Of a stretch of DNA of 13,768 nucleotides, positions 1 to 12,373 are shown one piece after another. Made by a program: the position numbers and the translations under genes. The stretch lies in the NCBI GenBank assembly GCA_963785725.1, contig CAWAWS010000011.1, positions 1-13,768 of the forward strand, in the 5' to 3' direction. Origin of the DNA: an uncultured delta proteobacterium (GTDB taxonomy: Bacteria; Myxococcota_A; Polyangia; Palsa-1104). The notes under the pieces were generated by a model. The model was given only the letters and a program-made list of their open reading frames with translations. It had not been told where the DNA came from and ran no database searches. The first letter of the stretch is position 1; every line of letters begins with the position of its first letter.

Positions 1-9
1 CACCAAATA

Positions 10-1192
10 TTACGCTGACTTGCTCTCCTCTTGCCCTTCCGTTGCAGGCGTCGCGTCCCGGCGATCCCCCACCGGATCCCCCACTGGGTTGCCGAACACC
101 ATCTGAACCACCTTGCCGGCCGCTGCCAACTTCTCCGCACGATCGACGAAGCTGTAGTGCTCCGTCATCTGCGCGGTGACGTGGCCAGTGATCGAGCGCG
201 TGACGATCTCGCCCGCTACCTGGCGCGCGAGGTTGTTGAACGTGCGCCGCAAACCGTGCACGGTGAACCTATGGGTGATCCCCGCCCTCTTCAGCGCCCG
301 CTCGTGCGCCTCACGCAGCCCGTTTTTCTTGAGCAACCGCCCATCAAGCGTCGTGAAGATCGAGCCCTGAGCCAGGCCCGGCACCTGACGTGCCAGCCAC
401 TGCTCGACGGCGATGCTCGCGCAACACCTTTGCCAGACCAGGAACGAGCGGCACTGACCGGATCACGCCTGTCTTGGTCGTTGAGACCTTGCCGTGCCAC
501 TGAGCGCGCCGGACCTGATGCATGCCGCCTCCTCTGTCGACATCTGTCCACTTGAGCGCAGTCGCTTCTCCGTACCTCAGTCCCGTGAGCGCCAGCGTGA
601 GCGCCAGCGGATACTGCCGAGCCGCGATCTCCTTGTACGCGGTCAGAAGCGCCGCGAGCTGCGCCGGAGCTAGCACGTTCGGATCTGCCTCGGTGTAGCC
701 CTGCACCGGAAGGACGCGAACCCGAGCTGGAGGCATTTGTTCGAGGTCATACTCTTCGACCGCGTCCCTGTACACCATCTTGAGGACGAGTAGCGCATTG
801 TTCGCCGTCGCTGCCGACCTCGTCTTCACGATTGCTTCGCGCCAGTCGCGCACATCTGCGTCGGTAACCTTATCGACGAAGAAGTCGCCGAGCGATGGCA
901 CGACGTGGTGGTCGAGGAGGTCAGCGTACGTCCTCCCGGTCGACGCCTTGAGTGCAAGCGCTCTGGACTTCATCCACGACTCGGCGAATTCTGCCAGCCT
1001 CGGGACGGCCACTTGCCGGTAGTCTGCCCCGCGGAGGCGGTCGCGTAGCTCCTCGCGCAGCTTCACGGCCTCCGACATCGAGACCTTTACTATTCGGTCT
1101 ACCTCCTTCATCCGGCCCGTCTTTGGATCTATCCGCGCACCCGGATACGCTTAGCCGTCGAGAAGATTCTCGATCCCTGGATACTTCCGCAT
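10..1192 (-). pseudogene. int: Tyrosine recombinase/phage-type integrase, disrupted by an in-frame TAA and a frameshift (or by sequencing errors)
   Basis: ATG at 1192 with GGAG 9 nt upstream reads MRKYPGIENLLDG*(TAA 1151-1153)AYPGARIDPKTGRMKEVDR and continues into ORF 344-1111 (core-binding domain, TGLRYGE, TTKT). A frameshift near 400-410 joins ORF 10-384 (HGLRRTF, ITGH, MTEHY). The full R-K-H-R-H-Y catalytic set is present across the two frames. Confidence 0.9.
63..87. repeat. Tandem direct repeat GATCCCCCAC (63-72, 75-84; 12-bp period), candidate integrase arm-type binding sites
   Basis: Exact 10-bp repeat in the 3' end of the integrase gene, encoding PVGDPVGD. The functional assignment is inference from its position. 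Confidence 0.45.
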
Positions 1193-1199
1193 GGTGAAC

Positions 1200-1489
1200 A
1201 TCTCCATAGGAGCCCTCGGGAACGCCACGGCCACTGAGCATAGCGTCGAGGTCTGCTACTCGAAAGAGCCATGTCCGCCCACGTCCCCCGCGGCCTTGAG
1301 CTTTCCAGCTGCGACCAAATTCCTCACGGCGGATGCTCCGCGATATCTGAGATACGTCGCGGCTTCGCGAGTCGTCAGATAGGGCGACACCGTCCGATCG
1401 TGCTGCCCCTGCGACGACTCGCCATGATGGTTGTTGGGTGCTATCGGTCTCCGATCGCCCTCGTGATGGCCGGGGCCCGTCGCTTCCAT
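1200..1489 (-). CDS. Excisionase-like helix-turn-helix DNA-binding protein (HTH_17/Xis type), frameshifted in a G-run
   Basis: ATG 1489 with GGAGG 7 nt upstream. YLTTREAATYLRYRGASAVRNLVAAGKLKAA shifts frame at the G5 run (~1285-1289) to GRGRTWLFRVADLDAML. It sits directly upstream of int on the same strand. The 3' end is uncertain because the second frame stays open to 921. Confidence 0.75.
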
Positions 1490-1823
1490 CGTCGAACCTC
1501 CGACGATAGATGCAGCGACGTAAAGTCAGCTTTCGGAACAGAGGCACTTCGCTAGCACTGATTGAAATGGGACCCCTTTTGCGGGGGGTACCTTCCCGGT
1601 GTATTCCAAAGTTCCCACAGCTTTTTGATCATTCCGGGCCGGCGACATAGGGCGGCTATCGGTACGACACGGCGAGTCCGTGTCACTGGAATAGCCGTGG
1701 AAAGAACGATTCGACTTGTCGCCAGCGCGCTCCCGAGTCCAACTCCACGGCCCGAAACGGATCGACTCCGTAGCCACGGAATCTGAATCCTGATCGGCCA
1801 ACGCCGTATTCAGGATACCAAGG

Positions 1824-2344
1824 TCAGCCCCGCTTATAGGCTCTTTCGATGTTCAGCGGTTCCTTGCTGAGATCCATACTAGCAGCCCAGCCATACTGGT
1901 ATTGCCGATCGCCGTGCACAAGGGCCTCGAGCTTCTTTATAGTCGGCGTTATTGTTGTCTCGGCTATGCTTGGATTCCATCACCAAAAGGTTCGCTTTAT
2001 CGTCGCCACGATGATGGATTATGAAGATCGGGGATTTTGCCGTCTATTTTGTATCCACCTTTAGCGCGGTGAAGCTCGGCATCGACCCACACGGTATTCC
2101 AAGGCGCTCCCCAACGCCGGCGACAGACGCTAATCAGTCGATCCAGACGAATGCCAAACCGAAAACAGATGGCTCGCTCAAACGATATAATGCGCTTTTC
2201 GTCTTCTTCGCTACCAACGCCGCCAGGGATTTCGTTCTTTTCCTCGTAATCCGAAGTGGCGGGATCTCCCTGTAGAAGATCAGTCCACGCGAGCTGTAGA
2301 AGTGCCGCTACTTCATCCGCTGAAGGTGGAGGTGAGGTTGTCAT
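1824..2344 (-). CDS. PD-(D/E)xK restriction-endonuclease-like protein, ~172 aa after correcting two +1 frameshifts
   Basis: ATG 2344 reads MTTSPPP...SFERAICFRFGIRL...VWVDAELHR...KIPDL, shift at ~2024, IIHHRGDDKANLLVMESKHSRDNNNADYK, shift at ~1936, KLEALVHGDRQYQYGWAASMDL...YKRG* (TGA 1824-1826). This gives E...PD...ExK motifs. The sequence is less GC-rich than the core genes. Confidence 0.7.
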
Positions 2345-2411
2345 GTCCGCTATCTTGCGCGGAAGAGCTGAGGCAATACCCTGCGACCTTTTGCCGCAAC
2401 TGCCGGTGTGC

Positions 2412-3184
2412 GTGACCGCGCACTTCGTTCGTTCTTTCGGAGCCTCGATCGCATCACGCCAGAATCTGCCGAGGAGTATTGGCGCCATCGGCTTCGCCAC
2501 GTGCGCCGAAAGACGGTGCTCAAGTAGCTTCGGCTCTACGTGGCTTCCTCTCCTGGTGCGCCCTCCAATGGCCATCTTCCGGCCGCGCCGCTCGTTTCGA
2601 CACCGCCTCCGAAGGCCGTAGGCACGCCTGACGCGAGGCGACCGCACAAGGCACAGTTTCTCGTCCTGACCGAGAAGGAGGTTCGCGCGGTGATCGCGAA
2701 CCTGCCGGCCATCGTGAAGGCTCCGCGTGCGCCGCGCGGCTATCCGGTGCAGGCGCGCTTCGAAGTTGCGTGGCAGACCGCGCTGAGGCCTCAGACGCTC
2801 AATCTGCTGCGCGCGCCTGACGACTACAAGCGCGGCCGCAGCTACCTCGTCATCCGCGACGAGATCGACAAGGCGCGATTTGGTCGCCGCCGACCACTAG
2901 CAAGGCCGCGCGCTGCGCTCTCGACTCGATCTGTCCTGACATCGGCCTGCTCTTCGGCCGCCACGATTATCGGTCGGTCCTACGCGCCGCTGGACGTGCT
3001 GCGGAGCTGCCGGAGGAAAAGGCCGCGCACCTGTCGCCGTACGACTTCCGGCACTCACAGGCTGACCTTCCTGGCGGAGCACAGCACGAACCTCGCCGGC
3101 ATCGCCTACCTCGCCGGCCACAAAAACGTCACCACGACGAACCGCTACATCCGGCCTACGGAGCGCGCCGCCGAGAACGTGTGA
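2412..3184 (+). pseudogene. Second tyrosine integrase, N-terminally truncated, with a nonsense codon and several frameshifts
   Basis: Across frames it reads LDRITPESAEEYWRHRLRHVRRKTVLK*(TAG 2525-2527)LSALRGFLSWC (core-binding domain), QTALRPQTL (catalytic R), DEIDKARFGR (K), HLSPYDFRHS, and YLAGHKNVTTTNRY (H, Y). It ends 120 bp from the tRNA-Leu 3' end. Confidence 0.85.
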
Positions 3185-3204
3185 AGGGTGTCGGACGGCA
3201 ATTG

Positions 3205-3233
3205 TGGCCACATACTGGCCGCCGTCGGGCCAC
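3205..3233. repeat. Three imperfect 7-bp repeats at an 11-bp period (TGGCCAC, TGGCCGC, GGGCCAC), candidate arm-type sites
   Basis: Copies start at 3205, 3216 and 3227, between the integrase stop and the tRNA. They overlap a hairpin CGCCGTCG/CGACGGCG (3220-3240). Confidence 0.35.
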
Positions 3234-3303
3234 GACGGCGAGTCGGAGAAAGAAGAAGCCGAAGAGGAAGTAGCAGGAGTTACCGTCGGTGCAGGTGCTG
3301 TTG

Positions 3304-3385
<82 letters not shown>

Positions 3386-3396
3386 GAGGCGGCAGA

Positions 3397-3425
3397 AATC
3401 TAGATGACCCCACGCCCCCTGTCAA
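3397..3425 (-). promoter_or_regulatory. Sigma70-type promoter for tRNA-Leu
   Basis: TTGACA (3425-3420), 17-bp spacer, TAGATT (3402-3397), 11 nt upstream of the tRNA 5' end. Confidence 0.85.
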
Positions 3426-3461
3426 GCGAACGTGACAAATCGCCGCCGTCAACCGGCGCGG

Positions 3462-3860
3462 CTACAGCCCGCAGTGCCGCTCGCTGCCGTTGGGACAGAG
3501 GCGATGCGTGATGCGCGTGACGTCCTCGAGGTCGAACGGCTTCGTCAGGAACTCGCACACGCCGAGCTTGATCGCCTCGTCCGACAGGCTGTGCACGGCC
3601 GACAACAACACGACCCGCGCCACCATCTCGGGAAAGCGCAGCTTGGCCGTCTCCATGAACTTCCAGCCGTCCATGAGCGGCATCATGAGGTCGAGAAAGA
3701 TGAGGTCCGGCATTCCCGCTTCCAGCCTCGCCAGCGCTTGGTAGCCGTTGGCGGCGGTCTCCACGTCGTAGCCTTCTTCGCGAATGACCTCGGCCAGCGA
3801 GCTGAGAATATCGGGATCATCCTCGACGATAAGGATGTTGGCGCACACGTGCTCGATCAT
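3462..3860 (-). CDS. Single-domain response regulator (CheY-like receiver)
   Basis: ILIVEDD, PDLIFLDLMMPLMDG (phosphoacceptor Asp), LLSA and FLTKPF; 132 aa with no output domain. Confidence 0.95.
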   Translation of the reverse strand: MIEHVCANILIVEDDPDILSSLAEVIREEGYDVETAANGYQALARLEAGMPDLIFLDLMMPLMDGWKFMETAKLRFPEMVARVVLLSAVHSLSDEAIKLGVCEFLTKPFDLEDVTRITHRLCPNGSERHCGL

Positions 3861-3940
3861 AGTCGCTTCCGGGCGCGCTTCAACCCTAGGGCATCGGCGG
3901 CGAAGATGCGGTGGCCACGTTACCGAGGCATACTGCGCAC

Positions 3941-4555
3941 ATGGACGAGGGAGACGGATCGGACGGACAGCGCCCCGCGCTCGTGCCCGCGGCCGAGCCG
4001 ACCGCCGAGGCGCCGTCGCGGACCGAGATCGACGCCGCCCTGCGCTTCGTCAACGGCCAGCTGGCCGAGAGCCGCGCCGGCCAGGTCGACCGCGACGCGA
4101 CGCTGCGCGCGCTCGTGGAAACGCTGGTCGCCGCCGGCGCGCTGCCGCCGGGCGAGTTCGAGCGCCGAAAGCAGCGCCTCCTCGACAGCGCCGCGCTCTA
4201 TCCGCCCGATCAGTCGATCGTCAAGCTGGGCGAGCCCGTCGACAAATACGCCGTCGGCCCGCTGCCGGACATCGACTGCGCGGCGCTCATGCCGCTGTGC
4301 AAGGCGCGCTGCTGCACGCTGACGGTGTTCTGCTCGACGCAAGATCTCGACGAGCGCGTCGTGCATTGGGACTACGCCAAGCCCTATCAGCTGCGCAAAC
4401 GCGACGACGGCTACTGCGCCCACTCGGAGCCGGCCACGTTCCGCTGCACCATTTACGCGCAGCGCCCCGCCATCTGCCGCACCTACGACTGCCGCGACGA
4501 CCGGCGCATCTGGCGCGACTTCAGCCGCCGCATCCCCGTCGACGGCGAATACTGA
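3941..4555 (+). CDS. YkgJ-like cysteine-cluster (putative zinc/iron-chelating) protein
   Basis: IDCAALMPLCKARCC...GYCAH...CTIYAQRPAICRTYDC matches the YkgJ-type Cys pattern. ATG 3941 is preferred over GTG 3911. Confidence 0.85.
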   Translation: MDEGDGSDGQRPALVPAAEPTAEAPSRTEIDAALRFVNGQLAESRAGQVDRDATLRALVETLVAAGALPPGEFERRKQRLLDSAALYPPDQSIVKLGEPVDKYAVGPLPDIDCAALMPLCKARCCTLTVFCSTQDLDERVVHWDYAKPYQLRKRDDGYCAHSEPATFRCTIYAQRPAICRTYDCRDDRRIWRDFSRRIPVDGEY

Positions 4556-4561
4556 CGAAGC

Positions 4562-5152
4562 TTACGGATCGCCGGCGCGGCTCTCGCGACGTGACGCGCG
4601 GAACACCGCCGCCGACGGCCGAAAACGCACGCAGCGATCCTCGGCCCAATCGAGCTCGCCCACGCGATAGCCGAGCTGCACGAGGCAGCGCAGATGAAAC
4701 GTCGACCGCCAAGGATGCGCCAGATAATACAGCTGGTCGCCCGACGTCACGATGTGCGCCTCGGACGCGCCCGCCGCGAGCAGGATTCGCCCGGCGTTGC
4801 GCAGGTTCGTCGTCGTGTGGCGCGCGCACGGATCGACGAGGACCGCCGTCTCCTTCACGCCCTGATCGAGCAGCCACTGCCGCATCAAGAGCGCCTCGTT
4901 GTCGGGCGAATGCACGGCGCCGCCGGACACGATCACCGTCGCCGCGCGGCCGCGCGCCAGCAGCTCGGCCGCGCGCGCCAGCCGCCGGGCCGCGCGCGGA
5001 TGCAGCCCGGCGCGCCAGCCGAACAGCGGCGTAAAGCCGGGCACGATGAGGAACGGCGCCGCGCCGTGCCAGCCGGCGTTGAGCGCGGCCGCGTCGACGA
5101 GCTGCCCGCGATGGCGCGGCTGGCAGCGACAAGGGTGGAGCGCGGCGCGCAT
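4562..5152 (-). CDS. YdcF family (DUF218) protein
   Basis: RLARAAELL, VIVSGGAVHSPDNEA, ARHTTTNLRNA and HIVTS motifs. ATG at 5152 lies just after the SDR stop. The track ORF 4562-5962 is a chimera of this gene and the SDR N-terminus. Confidence 0.85.
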   Translation of the reverse strand: MRAALHPCRCQPRHRGQLVDAAALNAGWHGAAPFLIVPGFTPLFGWRAGLHPRAARRLARAAELLARGRAATVIVSGGAVHSPDNEALLMRQWLLDQGVKETAVLVDPCARHTTTNLRNAGRILLAAGASEAHIVTSGDQLYYLAHPWRSTFHLRCLVQLGYRVGELDWAEDRCVRFRPSAAVFRASRRESRAGDP

Positions 5153-5172
5153 TCCGAGCGGCGCAGCGTGCG

Positions 5173-5962
5173 TCAGACGCCGCGAACGAGCCCGCCGTCG
5201 ACGGCCAGCGTCGTGCCCGTCACGTAGCCGGCGCGCGCCGAGCACAAGAAGGCCACGACGTCGCCGACCTCCTCGGGCGTGCCCATGCGGCCCAGCGGAA
5301 TCGTGCGCGCGCGCTCGGTGGCGATTTCGCCGACGGGCCGCCGCTGCATCTCGGCGTTGGCCTCGTCGAGCTCGCGCACGCAATCGGTGTCGACGATGCC
5401 CGGCGCCACGACGTTGACGAGCACGCCTTTGTCGGCCAGCTCCAGCGACAGCGACTTGCCGAGCCCGACCACTGCCGCGCGCACCGCGTTCGACAGCACC
5501 AGCCCGTGGATCGGCTGCTTCACCGTCACCGACGTCAGATGCACGATGCGCGGCTGCGACGACTTGAACAGCGCCGGCAACGCCGTTTGCACCATGCGCA
5601 CCGTCGAAATCAGCAGCAGATCGACGGCGCCACGCCAGGCCGCCTCGTCGAGCTTCTCGAACAGGCCGGCCGGCGGTCCGCCCGAGTTGGTGACGAGGAT
5701 GTCGAGCCCGCCCATGCGCGTCGTCGCCGCCTTGACGGCTTCGGCGGCTTCGTCGCCGCGACCGACGTCGGCGACGGCGATGTGCACGCGCGGGCCATAC
5801 AAGGCCTCGAGCTCGCGCCGCGTCGCGCTCGAGCTTGTCGGCTTTACGGCCGTTGATGACGACGTGCGCGCCTTCCGCCAACAGCGCCGCCGCGACGGCG
5901 CGACCGATGCCCGACGACGAACCGGCAACGAACGCGCGCTTGCCCTCGAGACCGAGATCCAT
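5173..5962 (-). CDS. Short-chain dehydrogenase/reductase (atypical BKR-like subgroup), one +1 frameshift near 5825
   Basis: MDLGLEGKRAFVAGSSSGIG (Rossmann motif) in one frame, then LDILVTNSGGPPAG, LSNAVR, VNVVAPG, IPLGRMG and VDGG in the other. The span is 790 nt, i.e. 263 codons plus one base. Confidence 0.9.
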
Positions 5963-6034
5963 TCCTGCGATGTATCACTGGATTAGGCGGAGGTCGACTT
6001 AGAACGTCGAAGGCAGGCGCGTTGCGAGGCTGAG

Positions 6035-9000
6035 CTACTGGATGATGCTGAGGTCGACCGCGAAGACTTCGACGTAGAACTGGGGAATGTCCATCTGCTG
6101 GTTGATGGCGTACGACGACACCCAGCCCTTGCCGCCCGAGTTCATCTGCAGGTCGGCGTAGAAGCCGTACGAGCCCGCGAACGGCTGCGCGTGGCCGGCG
6201 ATGTACTGCTTGGACCACATGCCGGTGGTGTCGCGGACCGCCTGGCGCAGCTCGACGACCGTCGCGTCCTGATAGCAGATGACGACACGGCCCGCCTGCA
6301 CCTGAATCGACGACGAGTCGCCGACGAAGTGCCACACCGGCGAGGCGAGGCCGTCCTGCGTCTGCTCGTCGTTGGGATGGTAGCCGTCATCGACGACGAC
6401 GCGGGTTTTGTCGGTCGCGTTCCAGTAGAGCAGGTTGCTCTGCGAGTCGTTCTCGTACGAGATGTGCGCGATGCCGTTCTCGTCGTACGCCAGCGAGTTG
6501 TAGCGGCCGACGTCGCCGAGGTCGTTGCCGTTGGCGTCTTCACCGTCGATGATGACCGGCTTGCCCCACGCGCCCATGTTGTTGTTGTAGGCGACGTAGC
6601 GCAGGTTGCCGCGCTGGCGATCGTAGTAGGTGACGCCGGGCGTGCCGTCGGCCTGACGCGCCACCGACGTCATGAGCGCGATGCCTTCGGGCAACAGCGT
6701 GTCGACCGGCGTCGGCGTCGTCGCCATGTCGGGACCGATGGCCATGTCGCCGCCACCGGCCATGTCGGGGCCGACCGCCATATCCGGCGGCGCCACGCCC
6801 ATGTCGGTGACCGGCGCGCCGTTCGACGACTGCAGCCGCGAGTCGAGCACCGTGACCGTCCAGTCGCTCGACGACGCCGGATAGGGCACGTTGGCCTGCG
6901 CCCAGCGCAGCTGCGACTCGGGCTCGCCGCTGACGCCGTTGGCGACCCACGCCGAGTAGGCGATGGCGGGCAGGCCGTCGAGGCCGACGCTCATCGAGGC
7001 GTACATGCCGATGTTGTCGCCGCCCGCGCCCGGCGTGCCGGTGCCGATGTCGACGGTGTGCGAATGCCAGCGAATGGCGCCGAACTCGGCGAACTTGAGC
7101 GCCTGATGCGTCAAGTCGTAGTAGGCGATGATGGGATCACCCGTCGACGAGACGCCGATCGAGGTGTAGCGGCCGACGTCGTCACCCTTGTCGCTGACGC
7201 CGCCGCGGACGTGCGAGTTGGCGATGTCGGGCGTCTCGTCGGGCACGCCGTCGACGAAGTCCCAGCCGGTGACGTCGCCGGGCGGCGTGATGTGACCGAT
7301 CATCAAGTCGCCGTAAGTGTCGTTGTAAGCGGCGACGTACGCATCGGTGCCGAGGATGGTCATCGACGAGAAGCGGCCGATGTCACCGAGCGGAATGTCG
7401 GGGATGCAGCCGCACGTCGAGCCCATGCACGACGGCACTTGACCGGCCGGGCACACCGTCGCCGCGCAGTCGTCGTCGATGGTGCACTGGTTCTTGCCCG
7501 GCTTATGCGAGCCGCAGCCGGCGACGCCGAAGGCGATGACGACTACGACCGCGAGCGGCGCCAGCGCCCGCGCGCGCCGCCGAAGGAGCACCAGCGCGAG
7601 CACGGCGAGACCGAGAAGGCCCCCGCCCGTGCCGCCGCCATCGCTGCCGCCGCCGGCGAAGCTGCAGCCCGACGCCTTGGGCGCCGCGCCGTACACCGGC
7701 AAGCCGAGCCCGGCGATGTCGAACGCGCCGACGCCGACGTTGCCCGCTTCATCCTGCGCGTAGAGCACGAGCGGCTGCGAGCCGCCGTTGGTGAGCGAGT
7801 TGGCCTGCGAGCTGCCCATCGAGCTCACCGACGTCCACGGCGAGCGCGAGCCGTCCGGCATGCGGTAGGCGTAACGCAGCTGCGCCGCCGGCGTCACGAT
7901 GTCGAAGCCGCCGAAGTTGAGCAGGCTGTGGTCCTTGTCGTCGCGCGCCGGATGCAGCTCGGGCGCCATCGAATCGATGAGCGCGTCCAGCTTCGCCGTC
8001 TGCAGATCCTCGGTCTCCCAATGGTTCACGACGCGCGAGCGAACCTCGATCGTGTGGTGACCTTGCAAGAGGAACTGCGGCTCGACCAGCGTCGGGTTCG
8101 GGTTCTGCGTCCAGTCTTCCCACATGCCGCTGTCGATGCGCCACGCGTACTCCACCGGGCGGCCGTTGCTGCCCGTCGTCGACAGCGCCAAGCGCACCGT
8201 CGGACGCGCGCCGGTGATGCCCGGCTCGGTGATGAAGTTCGCCCGCAGCTGCGCCGCGCTCGGCGTGTCGATGTTGCTGATGTTCGCCACCGTCTGCACG
8301 GCGCCGACGACGTGCGGATGCTGCGCGTCGCTCCAGTCGATGAGCGGCGCCGGCGTCCCGGCGACGATGTCGGCGAAGATGCCGACGAAGTCATCCTGCG
8401 TCGTCTGCACGCGCGAGATCGACAGGTTGTCGAGGCTGAAGCCGGCGATCGACGGCAGCTCGATGGGCTTGATGGCGCCGCCGATGGCGCCGGCCGCGAT
8501 GTTGATGAGCGACGGGAACACCGCCGCCAAGCCGGCCGGCGTCTCTTGCAAGAGGTCGGTGTTGCTGGCGCGAATCGTGACCGACTTGGTATCGAGGCCG
8601 CTCAGCGTCAGCTGCACCGCCGGCTTGCCGTCGGCCGCCGTCGTCGAGGTCAAGTCGAGCCCGAGGTTCAAGTCGACCGCCGCCGTCAACAGACGCACGT
8701 AGCGCTCTTCGATCCAGGCGTAGAAGTCGATGCGCAGGTCGCTGATCCCGACGTGAATCAGCGGATCGGCGGCGCCGCCGGCGCCGATCGTGAACGTCAG
8801 CGGCGTCTGCGGGCGCAAGACGAGCTTGAGCGGCGACGTGCGGTCCTCGAGGATGTTCGCCAGCGACGGCACGATGACGCTGAGCGTGCCGGCGTTGAGC
8901 TGCGCGATGGCGCTGCCGTCGATATCGAGGCACAGCGTGCCCGAGTTGTAGATGTGGAAGCCGACCAGATCCAAGAACGTGCGCGACAGACCGAGCGCCA

Positions 9001-10195
9001 AGTCCTCGGTGTTGCCCATGCTGTCGGTCGGATCGGGATTGCCGCTGAACGGACCGGCCGGGTTGAGCGAGTAGTCGTTACGGATGGCGTTGAGCGGCAA
9101 GCTCCACGGCGCGTCCGACAGAACCGGCGTCGGGCGAACCGGCACGCACGCGTTCGGCTCCGACACGTGCGCCGGGTCGCGCGTCGTCTGGTCGCTGTCG
9201 CTGTTGACGCCCGACTCGACGCCGAGCGTGAGCCCGCCGCCCGAGCCCTGCACGTAGCCGCCGGCCGCGACGAACAGCTCGAGCGACGCGTTCGCCGGCG
9301 GATTCAAGCTGCCGAGCAGGCCGCTCGCCGCCAGCGTGCCCGCGATGCCCGGCGGCTTCGGAATCAGCGACTGAATGAGATTGTTGAGCGTCGGCTTGAG
9401 CAGGTTGAGCACGAAGTTCGTGATCGCCTGACCAACGGCGTTGTTGAAGAGGCTGATGACGTCGTTGAGCAAGCTGCCGATGACGCTGCAGCCGCTGGCG
9501 CTGAGGTTGAGGTTGCCGAGCGAGATGTCGGCCAGCGCGAGCGTCAGCTCGCCCGTCGTCGCGTCGATGCCGGTCTGGATGTCGGCGATGATCTCGAGCG
9601 GCTGACCGCTGGCGCCGTTCCAGTGCTGCGACGCGATGTCGAGCGTGCACGAGCCCGACGCGCCCGCGAGGCAGGCGATGCCTTTGATGCCGTAGTCGAT
9701 CTCGAGCGGCACGTTGACGTCGAACTTGGCGTCGACGTGAATGACGGGGTTCGGCCCGTCGGCGAGCGAGATGGTGATCTTGTCGAGCCCCTGCGCGTCG
9801 GTGAGCTGAATCTGCGCCGGGCAGCCGGGCTTGCCGCCGGGGCAGTTGTTCGATTCACAGGCGCCGATGTCGACCGACGCCAGCACGCAGGTGCCGATCG
9901 TCGTGCTCGTCGGCTGCACGGCGCAGATGCCGGTTTGCAGCGAGCCCGACACGAGGTTCGTGATCGTGCTCAAGAGCTTGTCCATGCCCGGTTTCGTAAT
10001 GCGAGCTTGGAGTCCGCCTTCGATGACTTGATTGCTGGGAAGCCCGAGTGGCGCCGGCGCTGGAGTGCCGTTCACCGTGGGCAGTGGGGTGAATCCTCCA
10101 CACCCACCCGCTCCGCTCGAGGAACCACAACCAACTCCGAATGAAACCAGGACGATGCCCGCCACAAGAGTCTGCGCGGCGACGGACTTGACCAT
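6035..10195 (-). CDS. 1386-aa multidomain surface lipoprotein: N-terminal lipobox, putative LBP/BPI-like region, Ig-like domains, internal MYXO-CTERM-like motif, second lipoprotein signal, Cys-rich module, beta-propeller-like C-terminus
   Basis: AGGGAG RBS and strong GC3 bias. Signal peptide ends FGVGC23. SGC844SFAGGG...LLGLAVLALVLLRRR is followed by ARALAPLAVVVVIAFGVAGC894. Propeller-like blades read DIGRFSS, DVGRYTS, NIGMYAS, DVGRYNS and xIAYYD. Domain names are inferred by eye. Confidence 0.9.
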   Translation of the reverse strand: MVKSVAAQTLVAGIVLVSFGVGCGSSSGAGGCGGFTPLPTVNGTPAPAPLGLPSNQVIEGGLQARITKPGMDKLLSTITNLVSGSLQTGICAVQPTSTTIGTCVLASVDIGACESNNCPGGKPGCPAQIQLTDAQGLDKITISLADGPNPVIHVDAKFDVNVPLEIDYGIKGIACLAGASGSCTLDIASQHWNGASGQPLEIIADIQTGIDATTGELTLALADISLGNLNLSASGCSVIGSLLNDVISLFNNAVGQAITNFVLNLLKPTLNNLIQSLIPKPPGIAGTLAASGLLGSLNPPANASLELFVAAGGYVQGSGGGLTLGVESGVNSDSDQTTRDPAHVSEPNACVPVRPTPVLSDAPWSLPLNAIRNDYSLNPAGPFSGNPDPTDSMGNTEDLALGLSRTFLDLVGFHIYNSGTLCLDIDGSAIAQLNAGTLSVIVPSLANILEDRTSPLKLVLRPQTPLTFTIGAGGAADPLIHVGISDLRIDFYAWIEERYVRLLTAAVDLNLGLDLTSTTAADGKPAVQLTLSGLDTKSVTIRASNTDLLQETPAGLAAVFPSLINIAAGAIGGAIKPIELPSIAGFSLDNLSISRVQTTQDDFVGIFADIVAGTPAPLIDWSDAQHPHVVGAVQTVANISNIDTPSAAQLRANFITEPGITGARPTVRLALSTTGSNGRPVEYAWRIDSGMWEDWTQNPNPTLVEPQFLLQGHHTIEVRSRVVNHWETEDLQTAKLDALIDSMAPELHPARDDKDHSLLNFGGFDIVTPAAQLRYAYRMPDGSRSPWTSVSSMGSSQANSLTNGGSQPLVLYAQDEAGNVGVGAFDIAGLGLPVYGAAPKASGCSFAGGGSDGGGTGGGLLGLAVLALVLLRRRARALAPLAVVVVIAFGVAGCGSHKPGKNQCTIDDDCAATVCPAGQVPSCMGSTCGCIPDIPLGDIGRFSSMTILGTDAYVAAYNDTYGDLMIGHITPPGDVTGWDFVDGVPDETPDIANSHVRGGVSDKGDDVGRYTSIGVSSTGDPIIAYYDLTHQALKFAEFGAIRWHSHTVDIGTGTPGAGGDNIGMYASMSVGLDGLPAIAYSAWVANGVSGEPESQLRWAQANVPYPASSSDWTVTVLDSRLQSSNGAPVTDMGVAPPDMAVGPDMAGGGDMAIGPDMATTPTPVDTLLPEGIALMTSVARQADGTPGVTYYDRQRGNLRYVAYNNNMGAWGKPVIIDGEDANGNDLGDVGRYNSLAYDENGIAHISYENDSQSNLLYWNATDKTRVVVDDGYHPNDEQTQDGLASPVWHFVGDSSSIQVQAGRVVICYQDATVVELRQAVRDTTGMWSKQYIAGHAQPFAGSYGFYADLQMNSGGKGWVSSYAINQQMDIPQFYVEVFAVDLSIIQ
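6722..6807 (-). repeat. Coding repeat for a (P/G/T)DM(A/G) x5 linker
   Basis: CATGTC or CATATC at 6725, 6743, 6761, 6779 and 6800 (18-bp period, last 21), encoding TDMGVAPPDMAVGPDMAGGGDMAIGPDMAT. Confidence 0.8.
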
Positions 10196-10232
10196 GGTGA
10201 TGCTCCCTCGTGGTGTAAACTATTTGTTTCGC

Positions 10233-10262
10233 AGCCTACTTGCGTGGGGACGGGAATGTCAA
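10233..10262 (-). promoter_or_regulatory. Candidate sigma70-type promoter for the large lipoprotein gene
   Basis: TTGACA (10262-10257), 18-bp spacer, TAGGCT (10238-10233), 37 nt upstream of the ATG. Confidence 0.55.
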
Positions 10263-10308
10263 CGGCACTCACACTCTAAGTATTTTGAGCGCCGTATCCT
10301 ACACAATT

Positions 10309-10347
10309 CTTGTACGAAAAGACCTACAAGGTACCCAGGTTGACCTG
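10309..10347. promoter_or_regulatory. Candidate operator palindromes CTTGTA-N10-TACAAG (10309-10330) and CAGGT-TG-ACCTG (10336-10347)
   Basis: Inverted repeats in an AT-richer intergenic tract upstream of the candidate promoter. Confidence 0.35.
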
Positions 10348-10900
10348 AGTCACAATGTGCCCGATGACGCCGATTCCATTGGGTTTATGCCGCGACGCAG
10401 CAGAGTGTCAACGGTCATGGACCGAGGCTCAAATGCGAGCACTTGGCCGCAGTGCGTCACGAATCCGGATCACGTCCGCAGATTCAGCGTCGCCTTTCGG
10501 TCACGATCGAGCGAGCCTCGACCCCGCGAATTTGTGGCCGCTTGGAATGATCGCGATCTATCCGCGTTGCGCGACGGCGATCTCGTCGGCATCGCATCGC
10601 GCGGCGGTGGCGAGCGACGGCGCCGCGCGCAGTCGCAGTCGAGCCGAGCGCGGTGGCGCGCGCCATCAGTCGAGCGAGCGGGGCATCGTCGACGCCTGCT
10701 TCGATCGCGCTGCGATACACCGCGATCGGCCACGCAAGGACGAGCGGACGATGGGGCCGAAACGTTGCGTCCGCGAGAGGTCGATGAGCAGCGGTCGTGG
10801 TGTCGTCAGCGCGGCGCGGCTTCGCGCGGAAGATTCGACGATCTTGCGCAGCCGGCCCACCGCGAGGTCGAACGGGAATTCTTAGTGGCTCTTAGCGGTC

Positions 10901-10942
10901 GTAGAGACGCGCCCCTCATTTCTGCGGGCGCGTACCGTCTAC
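10901..10942 (-). terminator. Stem-loop immediately downstream of the small peptide gene
   Basis: ACGCGCCC (10907-10914) pairs with GGGCGCGT (10926-10933), extended by GTAGA/TCTAC. There is no clear U-tract. Confidence 0.35.
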
Positions 10943-11100
10943 CAAGGCTGCGGCTGAGGGGTGTCGTCGGGACGGGCGACGGGCAGTCGCTTGATCCAAG
11001 GCTGCGGCGTGGTGCTGTCGCCGCCGACGATGTGCTGGAGCTGGCGCGCGTCGATCGACTTCAGCATCGGCTTCGGGGTCGAAGGTTTCAGGGTCATCAT
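10939..11100 (-). CDS. Small double-glycine-leader peptide (bacteriocin/RiPP precursor-like), 53 aa (52 aa from ATG 11097)
   Basis: GAGGAG RBS (11109-11104) precedes ATGATG. Translation: MMTLKPSTPKPMLKSIDARQLQHIVGG-DSTTPQPWIKRLPVARPDDTPQPQPW*. Codons are GC3-rich. It is absent from the ORF track, whose shortest entries are ~60 aa. Confidence 0.75.
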   Translation of the reverse strand: MMTLKPSTPKPMLKSIDARQLQHIVGGDSTTPQPWIKRLPVARPDDTPQPQPW

Positions 11101-11449
11101 GTGCTCCTCGGTTGCGGTTGACCTGCCCGCACATGATCACCATTCGTCGTCGACGGCGCGATGACGCCACGCACGACGCACAACTACTGGCTACCGTTCT
11201 TGGGCGAGCTTGCTCGAGCGCACTGCAAAGCAATGGATGACTTTCACGGAGTGAAGACGCCCGGTCTATGAACTCAATCCGTCTGGCAGACCATGCGCCG
11301 TTTGGACGCCGGACGACCTCGAGGGCTTCGATGAGCACCTCGCTGGCGCGGGCTGGCGGTAAGAAGAACGGGAGGGTAGAGGCTCGCCGCCGCGGGCGCC
11401 GTCCAACAAGTGACGCCTATGCAGGTCCACGCAACGGATCAGGTCGTAA

Positions 11450-12373
11450 CTAGAGCGTGGCTGCCACTTCGACCACGAGGTCGCGGAACCAACGCACTGC
11501 CGGTTCCTCCAGCCTCGCTGCGTGCCAGGCGGCGACCATCGTGAACGTGCGCCTCTCGAATGGCGGCTCGAGCGTCGTGAGCCGATTGCCCATCGCGCTG
11601 CGTGCGACCACGCGTCGCGGGAGCGTCGCGACCATGTCGGAGGACGCGATCAGGGCGGGGGCGACCATGAAGTGAGGAATTCGGAGGGCGATCTCGCGCG
11701 AGAGACCCACCTTGCTGAGGACGTCGTCGACGAGCGCGGGGCCATCACCTTCCGGCGAGACCAAGAGGTGACGTAGTCTCGCAAACGACTTGAGGGTCAA
11801 CCGCGAGGTAAGTGCGGGATGCGAATGGCGAAGCACGCAAACAAAGTCTTCGCGGATGAGCTCGGTGACTTCGACGCCGCCGCCGGCGCGTAGACCCGGC
11901 GCGATCAACAAGTCGATCACGCCTTCGCCGAGCTGAGCAAGCTGTGCCTTCGGGTCGGCGATCGGCTTGACCCGCAGCGTCGCTCGGGGCGCACGCTTCG
12001 CGAGCGCAGCGTGAAGCGCGGGCAAGAGCACGATCTCACCGTAGTCCCCCATCGCAAGCCGGAACGCCGCGGGAGCGACGGCTGGGTCGAACGCCTGCGT
12101 CGCGAGCACGATGCGGACCTTGGCGAGAACGTCTTGTAGCGGCGGCGCAATGGCGAGGGCCCGCTGCGTCGGAACCATGCCTGCCCTCGTTCTGATGAAT
12201 AGCGGATCGGAGAATAGTGCGCGGAGGCGCGCGAGCGCGGCGCTCATCGCCGGCTGCGACAAGCCGATTCGTCGGCCTGCCCGCGTCACGCTGCGGTCGG
12301 TCAGCAGAGCGTCGAGCGCGATTAGCAGGTTCAGGTCAACGCTTGCAACATCCACGGAGTGGATAGTTGCCAT
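11450..12373 (-). CDS. LysR-family transcriptional regulator (NodD/NahR/LeuO-like VDLNLL subgroup)
   Basis: VDLNLLIALDALLTDRSVTRAGRRIGLSQPAMSAALARLR HTH, DPLFIRT, and a substrate-binding domain ending PAVRWFR. ATG 12373 is preferred over the track start at 12559. Confidence 0.95.
   Translation of the reverse strand: MATIHSVDVASVDLNLLIALDALLTDRSVTRAGRRIGLSQPAMSAALARLRALFSDPLFIRTRAGMVPTQRALAIAPPLQDVLAKVRIVLATQAFDPAVAPAAFRLAMGDYGEIVLLPALHAALAKRAPRATLRVKPIADPKAQLAQLGEGVIDLLIAPGLRAGGGVEVTELIREDFVCVLRHSHPALTSRLTLKSFARLRHLLVSPEGDGPALVDDVLSKVGLSREIALRIPHFMVAPALIASSDMVATLPRRVVARSAMGNRLTTLEPPFERRTFTMVAAWHAARLEEPAVRWFRDLVVEVAATL

Follow-up and report, generated by a model that had tools for sequence, protein, structure and literature searches.

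The minus strand of the window, by which we mean the whole analysed stretch of 13,768 nucleotides (the entire contig C11 of an 8.9-Mb genome with 68% GC and 88% completeness), carries a small gene for a peptide precursor with a double-glycine (GG) leader. The reading that we favour, with a probability of about 0.4, is that this precursor would be cut and exported by an unlinked C39 transporter operon, and that the released unmodified 26-mer would serve as a cell-to-cell signal with two motifs. The leader and the export route are already known, and the new part is a conserved core composed of two PxPW units and a free spacer. The gene comprises the following features:

11104..11109, minus strand: Shine-Dalgarno sequence GAGGAG, seen in the sequence, 6 nt before the ATG at 11097
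10939..11100, minus strand: precursor gene, 53 codons (52 from the second ATG) plus TAG; based on the ORF, the codon score, a 3-member cluster and the homologues P0004-P0006
11020..11100, minus strand: double-glycine leader, 27 aa, with L-15, I-12, L-7, I-4, G-2 and G-1; based on the computed register, the motif in PMC10885120 and a low-confidence model
10942..11019, minus strand: predicted mature core, 26 aa, no Cys; cleavage site placed by the GG rule
10990..11013, minus strand: core motif 1, T-x-P-x-P-W-[IL]-K (residues 30-37), with T30, P32, P34, W35 and K37 invariant in 5/5 aligned sequences
10942..10968, minus strand: core motif 2, C-terminal P-x-P-W (residues 45-53), with P50, P52 and W53 invariant in 5/5 aligned sequences

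The sequence-only reading had described an ORF of 52-53 codons behind a GAGGAG ribosome-binding site, and both were found, the ORF at 10939-11100 on the minus strand and the binding site at 11109-11104. Translation from 11100 to 10939 gives MMTLKPSTPKPMLKSIDARQLQHIVGG followed by DSTTPQPWIKRLPVARPDDTPQPQPW, and then TAG. Between the GAGGAG and the first ATG there are 3 nt; the second ATG, at 6 nt, has the better spacing and agrees with the 52-aa database record. The GC3 value of the ORF is 0.87, and its frame has the top genome-codon score of the six frames (+5.65; the runner-up, at +0.22, contains a stop). Two observations would fit a chance ORF in GC-rich intergenic DNA. Under the genome-trained codon model the ORF scores 0.107 per codon, close to the bottom percentile of the called genes, and a strict GG-leader screen, which matched 10 peptides in this genome, also gave 4, 2, 2 and 6 matches in four control genomes, indicating that the GG pattern alone is no proof of a gene.

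This explanation is countered by diverged relatives. A phmmer scan of 1.84 billion protein representatives (threshold E<=0.001) returned four matches, namely the query's own record and P0004, P0005 and P0006, which are 57, 48 and 55% identical to the query (E 3e-8 to 2e-5). All three are complete ORFs of 44-48 aa with a GG leader, the T-x-P-x-P-W-[IL]-K motif, a variable spacer and a terminal P-x-P-W, and in core-only alignments each scored above 20000/20000 shuffles. Homologues keeping the GG leader and PxPW, on whose existence the sequence-only reading had staked its proposal, thus exist, and both PxPW units are kept in each. Since they are whole ORFs with the same order of start, leader, motifs and stop, a chance ORF is refuted in practice and its probability is negligible; judged by these homologues, the predicted precursor ORF is a real gene. 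The three homologues sit on contigs of 586-691 bp with no gene context, and the resemblance of their leaders to GG leaders of the query's genus hints that they may come from the same lineage. The 90% cluster of the query has three members, the other two of which differ by T3N, Q22R, I24V and Q49E.

Soil-run contigs from 4 of the 17 listed runs (X1, X2, X8 and X13) were compared with the stretch; no RNA run with the gene was among those listed, which is no evidence about expression. The X1 contig spans 10835-11181 and differs by 20 substitutions and 12 gap letters; all 12 of the latter fall past the stop, which also argues against chance; among the differences listed, the changes inside the ORF are Q49E and one silent Pro codon. 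The X8 contig, from a different study, matches the leader region 11017-11075, joined to 10215-10493, and its loose end, inspected by eye, carries an RBS-like stretch followed by M-M-T-K-K-T-I. No long piece across the gene was found in runs X2 and X13. The gene is thus present at one and the same site in close strains from two soil studies. The segment 11114-11177, upstream of the gene, is matched by several separate soil contigs and is possibly a conserved promoter element, or a GC-rich chance match.

The pattern of conservation was followed across the five aligned sequences. Among nine diverged pairs, identity was 50-80% in motif 1, 44-89% in motif 2, 29-33% in the spacer and 35-77% in the leader, and the spacer differed in length by at most 4 residues. 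The cores measure 22-26 aa, carry a net charge of 0 to -1 and contain no Cys in 5/5; the unmodified 26-aa core of the query has a monoisotopic mass of 3025.54, 0 Cys and a net charge of 0. The motifs and the leader register are kept while the spacer drifts, indicating selection on the two PxPW units and on the leader register rather than on the spacer. Of the duplicated PQPW that had been pointed out earlier, the two units stood, whereas PQPW itself did not prove to be the conserved form, which is PxPW (PQPW, PVPW, PIPW or PLPW). The D-x-T said to precede each copy holds only loosely, as D-S-T-T-PQPW in one case and D-D-T-P-Q-PQPW in the other.

At the nucleotide level, a repeat and a hairpin had been described:

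10996..11008, plus strand: copy 1 of the exact 13-bp repeat, encoding the first PQPW, seen in the sequence
10942..10954, plus strand: copy 2 of the exact 13-bp repeat, encoding the terminal PQPW, seen in the sequence
10906..10933, minus strand: GC-rich hairpin 3' of the stop, no U-tract, folding at chance level against shuffles

The exact 13-bp direct repeat is present, and its identity extends no further. Repeats of at least 13 bp occurred in 2.9% of 5000 random 162-nt genome windows and in 12.9% of 5000 synonymous recodings of the precursor; taken alone, the repeat is weak evidence, mildly above chance. In both copies Trp is preceded by the codon CCT, which was used in 116/1658 Pro-Trp pairs of called genes genome-wide, and this uncommon choice fits a local duplication. 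The downstream hairpin did not withstand analysis, since its folding was no better than that of shuffled sequences (z -0.84; 34/200 shuffles folded as well). The signal scan gave no terminator or promoter near the precursor gene, no convincing sigma-54 site was seen near it, and Rfam had zero matches across 10150-11500.

The proposal of a double-glycine leader was borne out by the alignment: G26 and G27 are invariant in 5/5 sequences and hydrophobic residues occupy positions -4, -7, -12 and -15 in 5/5 leaders, so that the register is conserved throughout. Hydrophobic residues at -4, -7 and -12 are described as needed for GG-leader recognition by LahT, and position -15 as part of the ComA motif (PMC10885120). 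The structure model has a helix at residues 18-25, at low confidence (mean pLDDT 63.7, pTM 0.18).

A C39 peptidase transporter had been expected elsewhere in the genome, and there is one. The only C39 match belongs to a 742-aa PCAT (C26:63374-65602) whose operon also encodes two adaptors and TolC; among solved structures LahT147 is closest to this PCAT (E 8e-34). Its C39 domain aligns at Cys27, His101 and Asp117, the catalytic triad named in PMC6363468, and the triad is intact. No GG precursor was found on contig C26, which carries this PCAT. C39 genes are present in 4/4 congeners, and in L206 and L207 (G003 C118 and G004 C36) similar congener PCAT operons adjoin GG precursors of their own, one of which has a leader closely resembling the P0004-P0006 leaders. 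Pneumococcal GG peptides are described as sharing exporters, and unmodified GG peptides with a shared transporter and no adjacent receptor, BriC and others, are also on record (PMC7595303). Because the single PCAT has an intact triad but no precursor of its own, and GG peptides lie on other contigs, cleavage and export in trans are likely; the simplest reading, which we infer from gene content, is that one exporter would serve scattered precursors. Mechanistically, the leader helix would dock on the C39 domain, the precursor would be cleaved after Gly27, and the extended 26-mer core would leave through PCAT, adaptor and TolC in one step. From the leader register and the exporter sequence, this docking and exit route is very probable.

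Of the 10 screen matches in this genome, one was a fragment of a membrane protein and was dropped, and the remaining nine were judged to be precursors. Seven of them contain Cys, and for four of these seven the locus also carries LanC-like, radical SAM or MNIO genes. Four GG peptides exceed the cut-off of the NF038153 class I lanthipeptide leader model; one peptide adjoins a radical SAM/SPASM gene and another an MNIO gene. The GG peptide on C47 has a leader score below the cut-off, yet adjoins LanB/LanC-like genes. A GG-leader peptide with a CPTC core (contig C39, 705253-706564, L192) lies directly 5' of a ChrH-like MNIO gene. Two GG peptides, the query and one on C3, are Cys-free and Pro-rich and have no recognised maturase nearby. 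The latter (C3:344128-344262; L075:8129-8263), a second orphan, is above the TIGR01847 cut-off.

The peptide gene had been called an orphan, and so it appears in the contig: no transporter or modifying enzyme gene is present in the window, and none of the neighbours is a transporter, a maturase, a receptor kinase or an obvious immunity gene. With the contig ending 2.7 kb upstream and genome completeness at 88%, genes linked to the peptide could be absent from the assembly. No kinase that could form a two-component receptor was found among the scanned window ORFs, the neighbours being LysR, DUF4267, SnoaL and MYXO-CTERM-like genes. The sole response regulator of the window is 7 kb off, in a block kept by congeners that lack the peptide, which counts against signalling. 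The block 3400-10195 is syntenic in four congeners and one confamilial genome. In four of these relatives the place upstream of the large MYXO-CTERM-like gene is taken by a lipoprotein/redoxin operon, which had no close match in the query assembly, and the fifth contig stops inside a similar gene. At the corresponding place the query has the peptide gene, followed by LysR, DUF4267 and SnoaL and, where the contig ends, by an integrase-like scrap. Relatives thus have different genes at the same place, indicating that the peptide occupies a variable site. We did not count LysR, DUF4267 and SnoaL as belonging to one unit with the peptide: they are generic families, LysR and DUF4267 have atypical codon use, and the integrase-like scrap lies behind them. 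The X1 contig extends 410 letters beyond 11181, yet does not match 11182-11500, a weak hint that peptide gene and LysR module are independent of each other. Positions 1-5472 of the window, which contain integrase pieces and a tRNA-Leu at 3303-3385, are duplicated at the start of contig C6 with 95% identity and 48 gap openings, which suggests strain mixing or assembly errors.

The same surroundings bear on a cis-acting leader or arrest peptide that would control the downstream 1386-aa MYXO-CTERM-like surface protein. The peptide gene is on the same strand as this exported-protein gene and upstream of it, its Pro-rich C-terminus comes directly before the stop, and in close strains it is found at this site too. 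A 744-nt gap, however, separates it from the large gene, which may have its own promoter, suggested by a TTGACA at 10262-10257 (noted by eye; not passed by the scan). The peptide also lacks an end of the RAPP/RGPP type described for arrest peptides (PMC12992588), the large gene occurs in five congeners or confamilials that lack the peptide, and the internal PxPW copy would be left unexplained. We consider regulation in cis highly improbable. The 1386-aa protein itself (window 6035-10195) has weak LBP/BPI and MYXO-CTERM matches and is conserved across the family.

The patchy distribution and the mobile-looking DNA alongside are typical of accessory antagonistic genes, and an unmodified secreted effector would use an identical export route; it could be a class II bacteriocin- or microcin-like peptide, an enzyme-inhibiting Pro-rich peptide or an EbfG-like biofilm-promoting protein. 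Proline-rich antimicrobials are generally cationic, unlike the family cores, which are neutral to acidic (net 0 to -1). The low-confidence model has no hydrophobic helix in the core, and past the stop there is no co-oriented immunity-like gene, only the 744-nt gap, which holds no called gene. GG peptides with non-signalling roles are described in a Gram-negative bacterium (EbfG1-4; PMC4997328). On balance an effector function is unlikely.

The suggestion that the peptide is a RiPP is so far unsupported: no linked maturase was found, and the obvious classes fail their defining tests. Class I lanthipeptides were rejected because the cores have 0 Cys in 5/5, which excludes lanthipeptide chemistry, and because there is no NF038153 hit and no LanB/LanC nearby; LanB matches in the genome are confined to C47 and C26. 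For graspetides, T30 and K37 are invariant, but no acidic residue is, and the 88%-complete genome has no match to the one ligase model used, TIGR04184. Neither an MvdD-type ATP-grasp nor a YcaO match was found in the genome. The triceptide-type aromatic-x-x motif is present as the invariant W-[IL]-K. No cyclophane-forming radical SAM/SPASM enzyme scored above its model threshold, the best TIGR04261 match reaching 38.8 bits against a cut-off of 310 in a gene that has a precursor of its own, and five rSAM proteins that were scanned are nearer to other families.

A RiPP could instead be modified in trans, before PCAT export, by an unlinked enzyme acting on Trp, for instance by a radical-SAM Trp-Lys cross-link on W-[IL]-K or by oxidation or prenylation of the C-terminal Trp. 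Both W35-x-K37 and the terminal W53 are invariant. The Trp-Lys link of darobactin has a W-x-K spacing, and repeated cores, as here, are typical for iterative maturases. Darobactin is described as containing Trp-Lys C-C links (PMC9055067). The genome also holds candidate maturases with no assigned substrate, which count against an unmodified core: a row of S26-like peptidase, HprK-like kinase, radical SAM and PqqD genes with no precursor seen (C7:797532-800314, L190), a divergent LanB of full length that stands alone some 20 kb from the PCAT and beside which neither LanC nor a precursor was seen (C26:86279-88882, L210), and 11 P450 matches. Set against this reading are the missing enzyme classes named above, the core without Cys or an invariant acidic residue, and the second Trp, which has no downstream Lys. 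The LynF prenyltransferase model had zero matches anywhere, controls included, and the sole Trp-DMATS (C33:74009-77981, L213), fused to a haem-oxygenase-like domain, sits in an operon with a class V aminotransferase and an O-methyltransferase, which points to probable small-molecule chemistry. No link was found between the peptide locus and the C7 cassette, the C26 LanB, the P450s or the DMATS fusion. We regard modification in trans as rather unlikely, and the core as somewhat more apt to stay unmodified than not.

Two conserved, Trp-anchored Pro motifs on a free tether look less like a folded toxin or an enzyme scaffold than like a binding ligand, and we therefore favour the unmodified signal. 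We infer that it is to be preferred to the RiPP modified in trans, with the antagonistic or structural peptide ranked after both. In the signal, each PxPW unit might bind a receptor pocket as an extended, proline-rich, Trp-anchored segment, with the spacer as tether; alternatively, the invariant Lys might mark a further cleavage point, which would release two short PxPW peptides. Both are weak proposals.

The distribution of the family counts against signalling. Searches of 41 further genomes of the order (incomplete genomes), of 400 class and 400 phylum genomes (overlapping and incomplete sets), and three family searches of 138, 73 and 89 genomes (overlapping sets) brought up no convincing family member; the unpublished genome G363 was counted in tallies only. 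No related loci were found in GTDB genome contigs or in viral contigs, and plasmid sequences had no match to the locus. A word-index protein search returned the query's own cluster only, and with alignment the same four proteins (4/27 candidates). Several candidates were rejected: a single metagenome-contig match (61/64 parts scanned) is antisense and due to chance; the one longer protein among 1753 candidates, a KR-repeat protein at E 0.79, is unrelated; DNA-pattern scans gave 23, 30 and 37 stretches and a class-wide pattern search 36 places (loci for 30), none of them a family member once translated; and the weak profile matches L166-L177 and L211 are chance or other GG peptides. Judged from these searches, the family is apparently rare and known from metagenomes. 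Rarity across order, class and phylum means that there is no lineage-wide signal.

The core had been called unlike any described class, and this held: it has no Pfam hit, no curated model at cut-off, no PDB match (best E 0.77), and no NCBIfam or literature match was found. Leads from the ESM Atlas are all under 0.9, including a ComC cluster at 0.88, and are leads only. No description of a double-PxPW core was found in the open-access literature, a search whose scope did not extend to supplementary genome-mining tables. Since the leader and the export route are textbook, the kind of gene is unsurprising. The short, Cys-free core is cheap to make and the candidate protease is nearest, among solved structures, to the broad-substrate LahT147, which makes processing and activity directly testable. 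Should the peptide prove to be a signal, myxobacterial communication would gain a ribosomal peptide pheromone; should it prove to be modified, an orphan maturase would gain a substrate. A wider proposal, which we hold as doubtful, is a soil-myxobacterial pheromone family of bivalent PxPW-spacer-PxPW peptides with a shared exporter and an unlinked receptor, possibly Trp-modified by an orphan maturase cassette. Were it true, Gram-positive-style GG-peptide signalling, or new Trp chemistry, would exist in a myxobacterial lineage; no GG-peptide signalling in a myxobacterial lineage was found in the open-access literature.

Among known systems, ComC/CSP, BlpC, BriC, EntF and LahA with LahT147 (PDB 6MPZ) share with the query the leader register -15/-12/-7/-4/GG and a short Cys-free core, and a LahT-type PCAT is present in the genome; the predicted use of an unlinked exporter would be as for BriC. 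The query differs from this group in its Gram-negative myxobacterial host with adaptor and TolC, in having no adjacent exporter or sensor kinase, and in its duplicated PxPW core, which is below the cut-off of every curated model. Assignment to the ComC/EntF-type pheromones by curated model was rejected accordingly (NF033383, EntF, 12.3 bits against a cut-off of 35). EbfG1-4 and PteB of Synechococcus elongatus are described as a likewise Gram-negative case of small GG proteins that a peptidase transporter secretes, with a non-antibiotic role (PMC4997328); by that description the query is set apart by its 26-aa core, two PxPW units and lone gene. The NF038153 class I lanthipeptide precursors of the same genome share the Lys-rich N-terminus and the GG site, and probably use the same exporter, whereas the query has no NF038153 hit, no Cys and no LanB/LanC nearby. 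Crocagin CgnA of Chondromyces crocatus is also a myxobacterial ribosomal peptide, with a core that ends in a modified Trp; as described in PMC10070186, it has 21 aa, a three-residue Tyr/Trp core and clustered enzymes, whereas the query combines a GG leader with a 26-aa core and lacks a cluster. Darobactin and the triceptides have in common with the query the invariant W-x-K of motif 1, but the query has no matching radical SAM above cut-off, either in the genome or nearby. In Planococcus dechangensis (L109:1452-3441), a 476-aa HTH/TPR ORF precedes a Sec-type peptide that carries ten tandem KAR-TPEPWSV units, a pair that looks like a putative RRNPP regulator with a multi-copy pheromone. This TPEPW peptide presents the PxPW unit in another pheromone-like layout, as an unrelated analogy with no homology implied.
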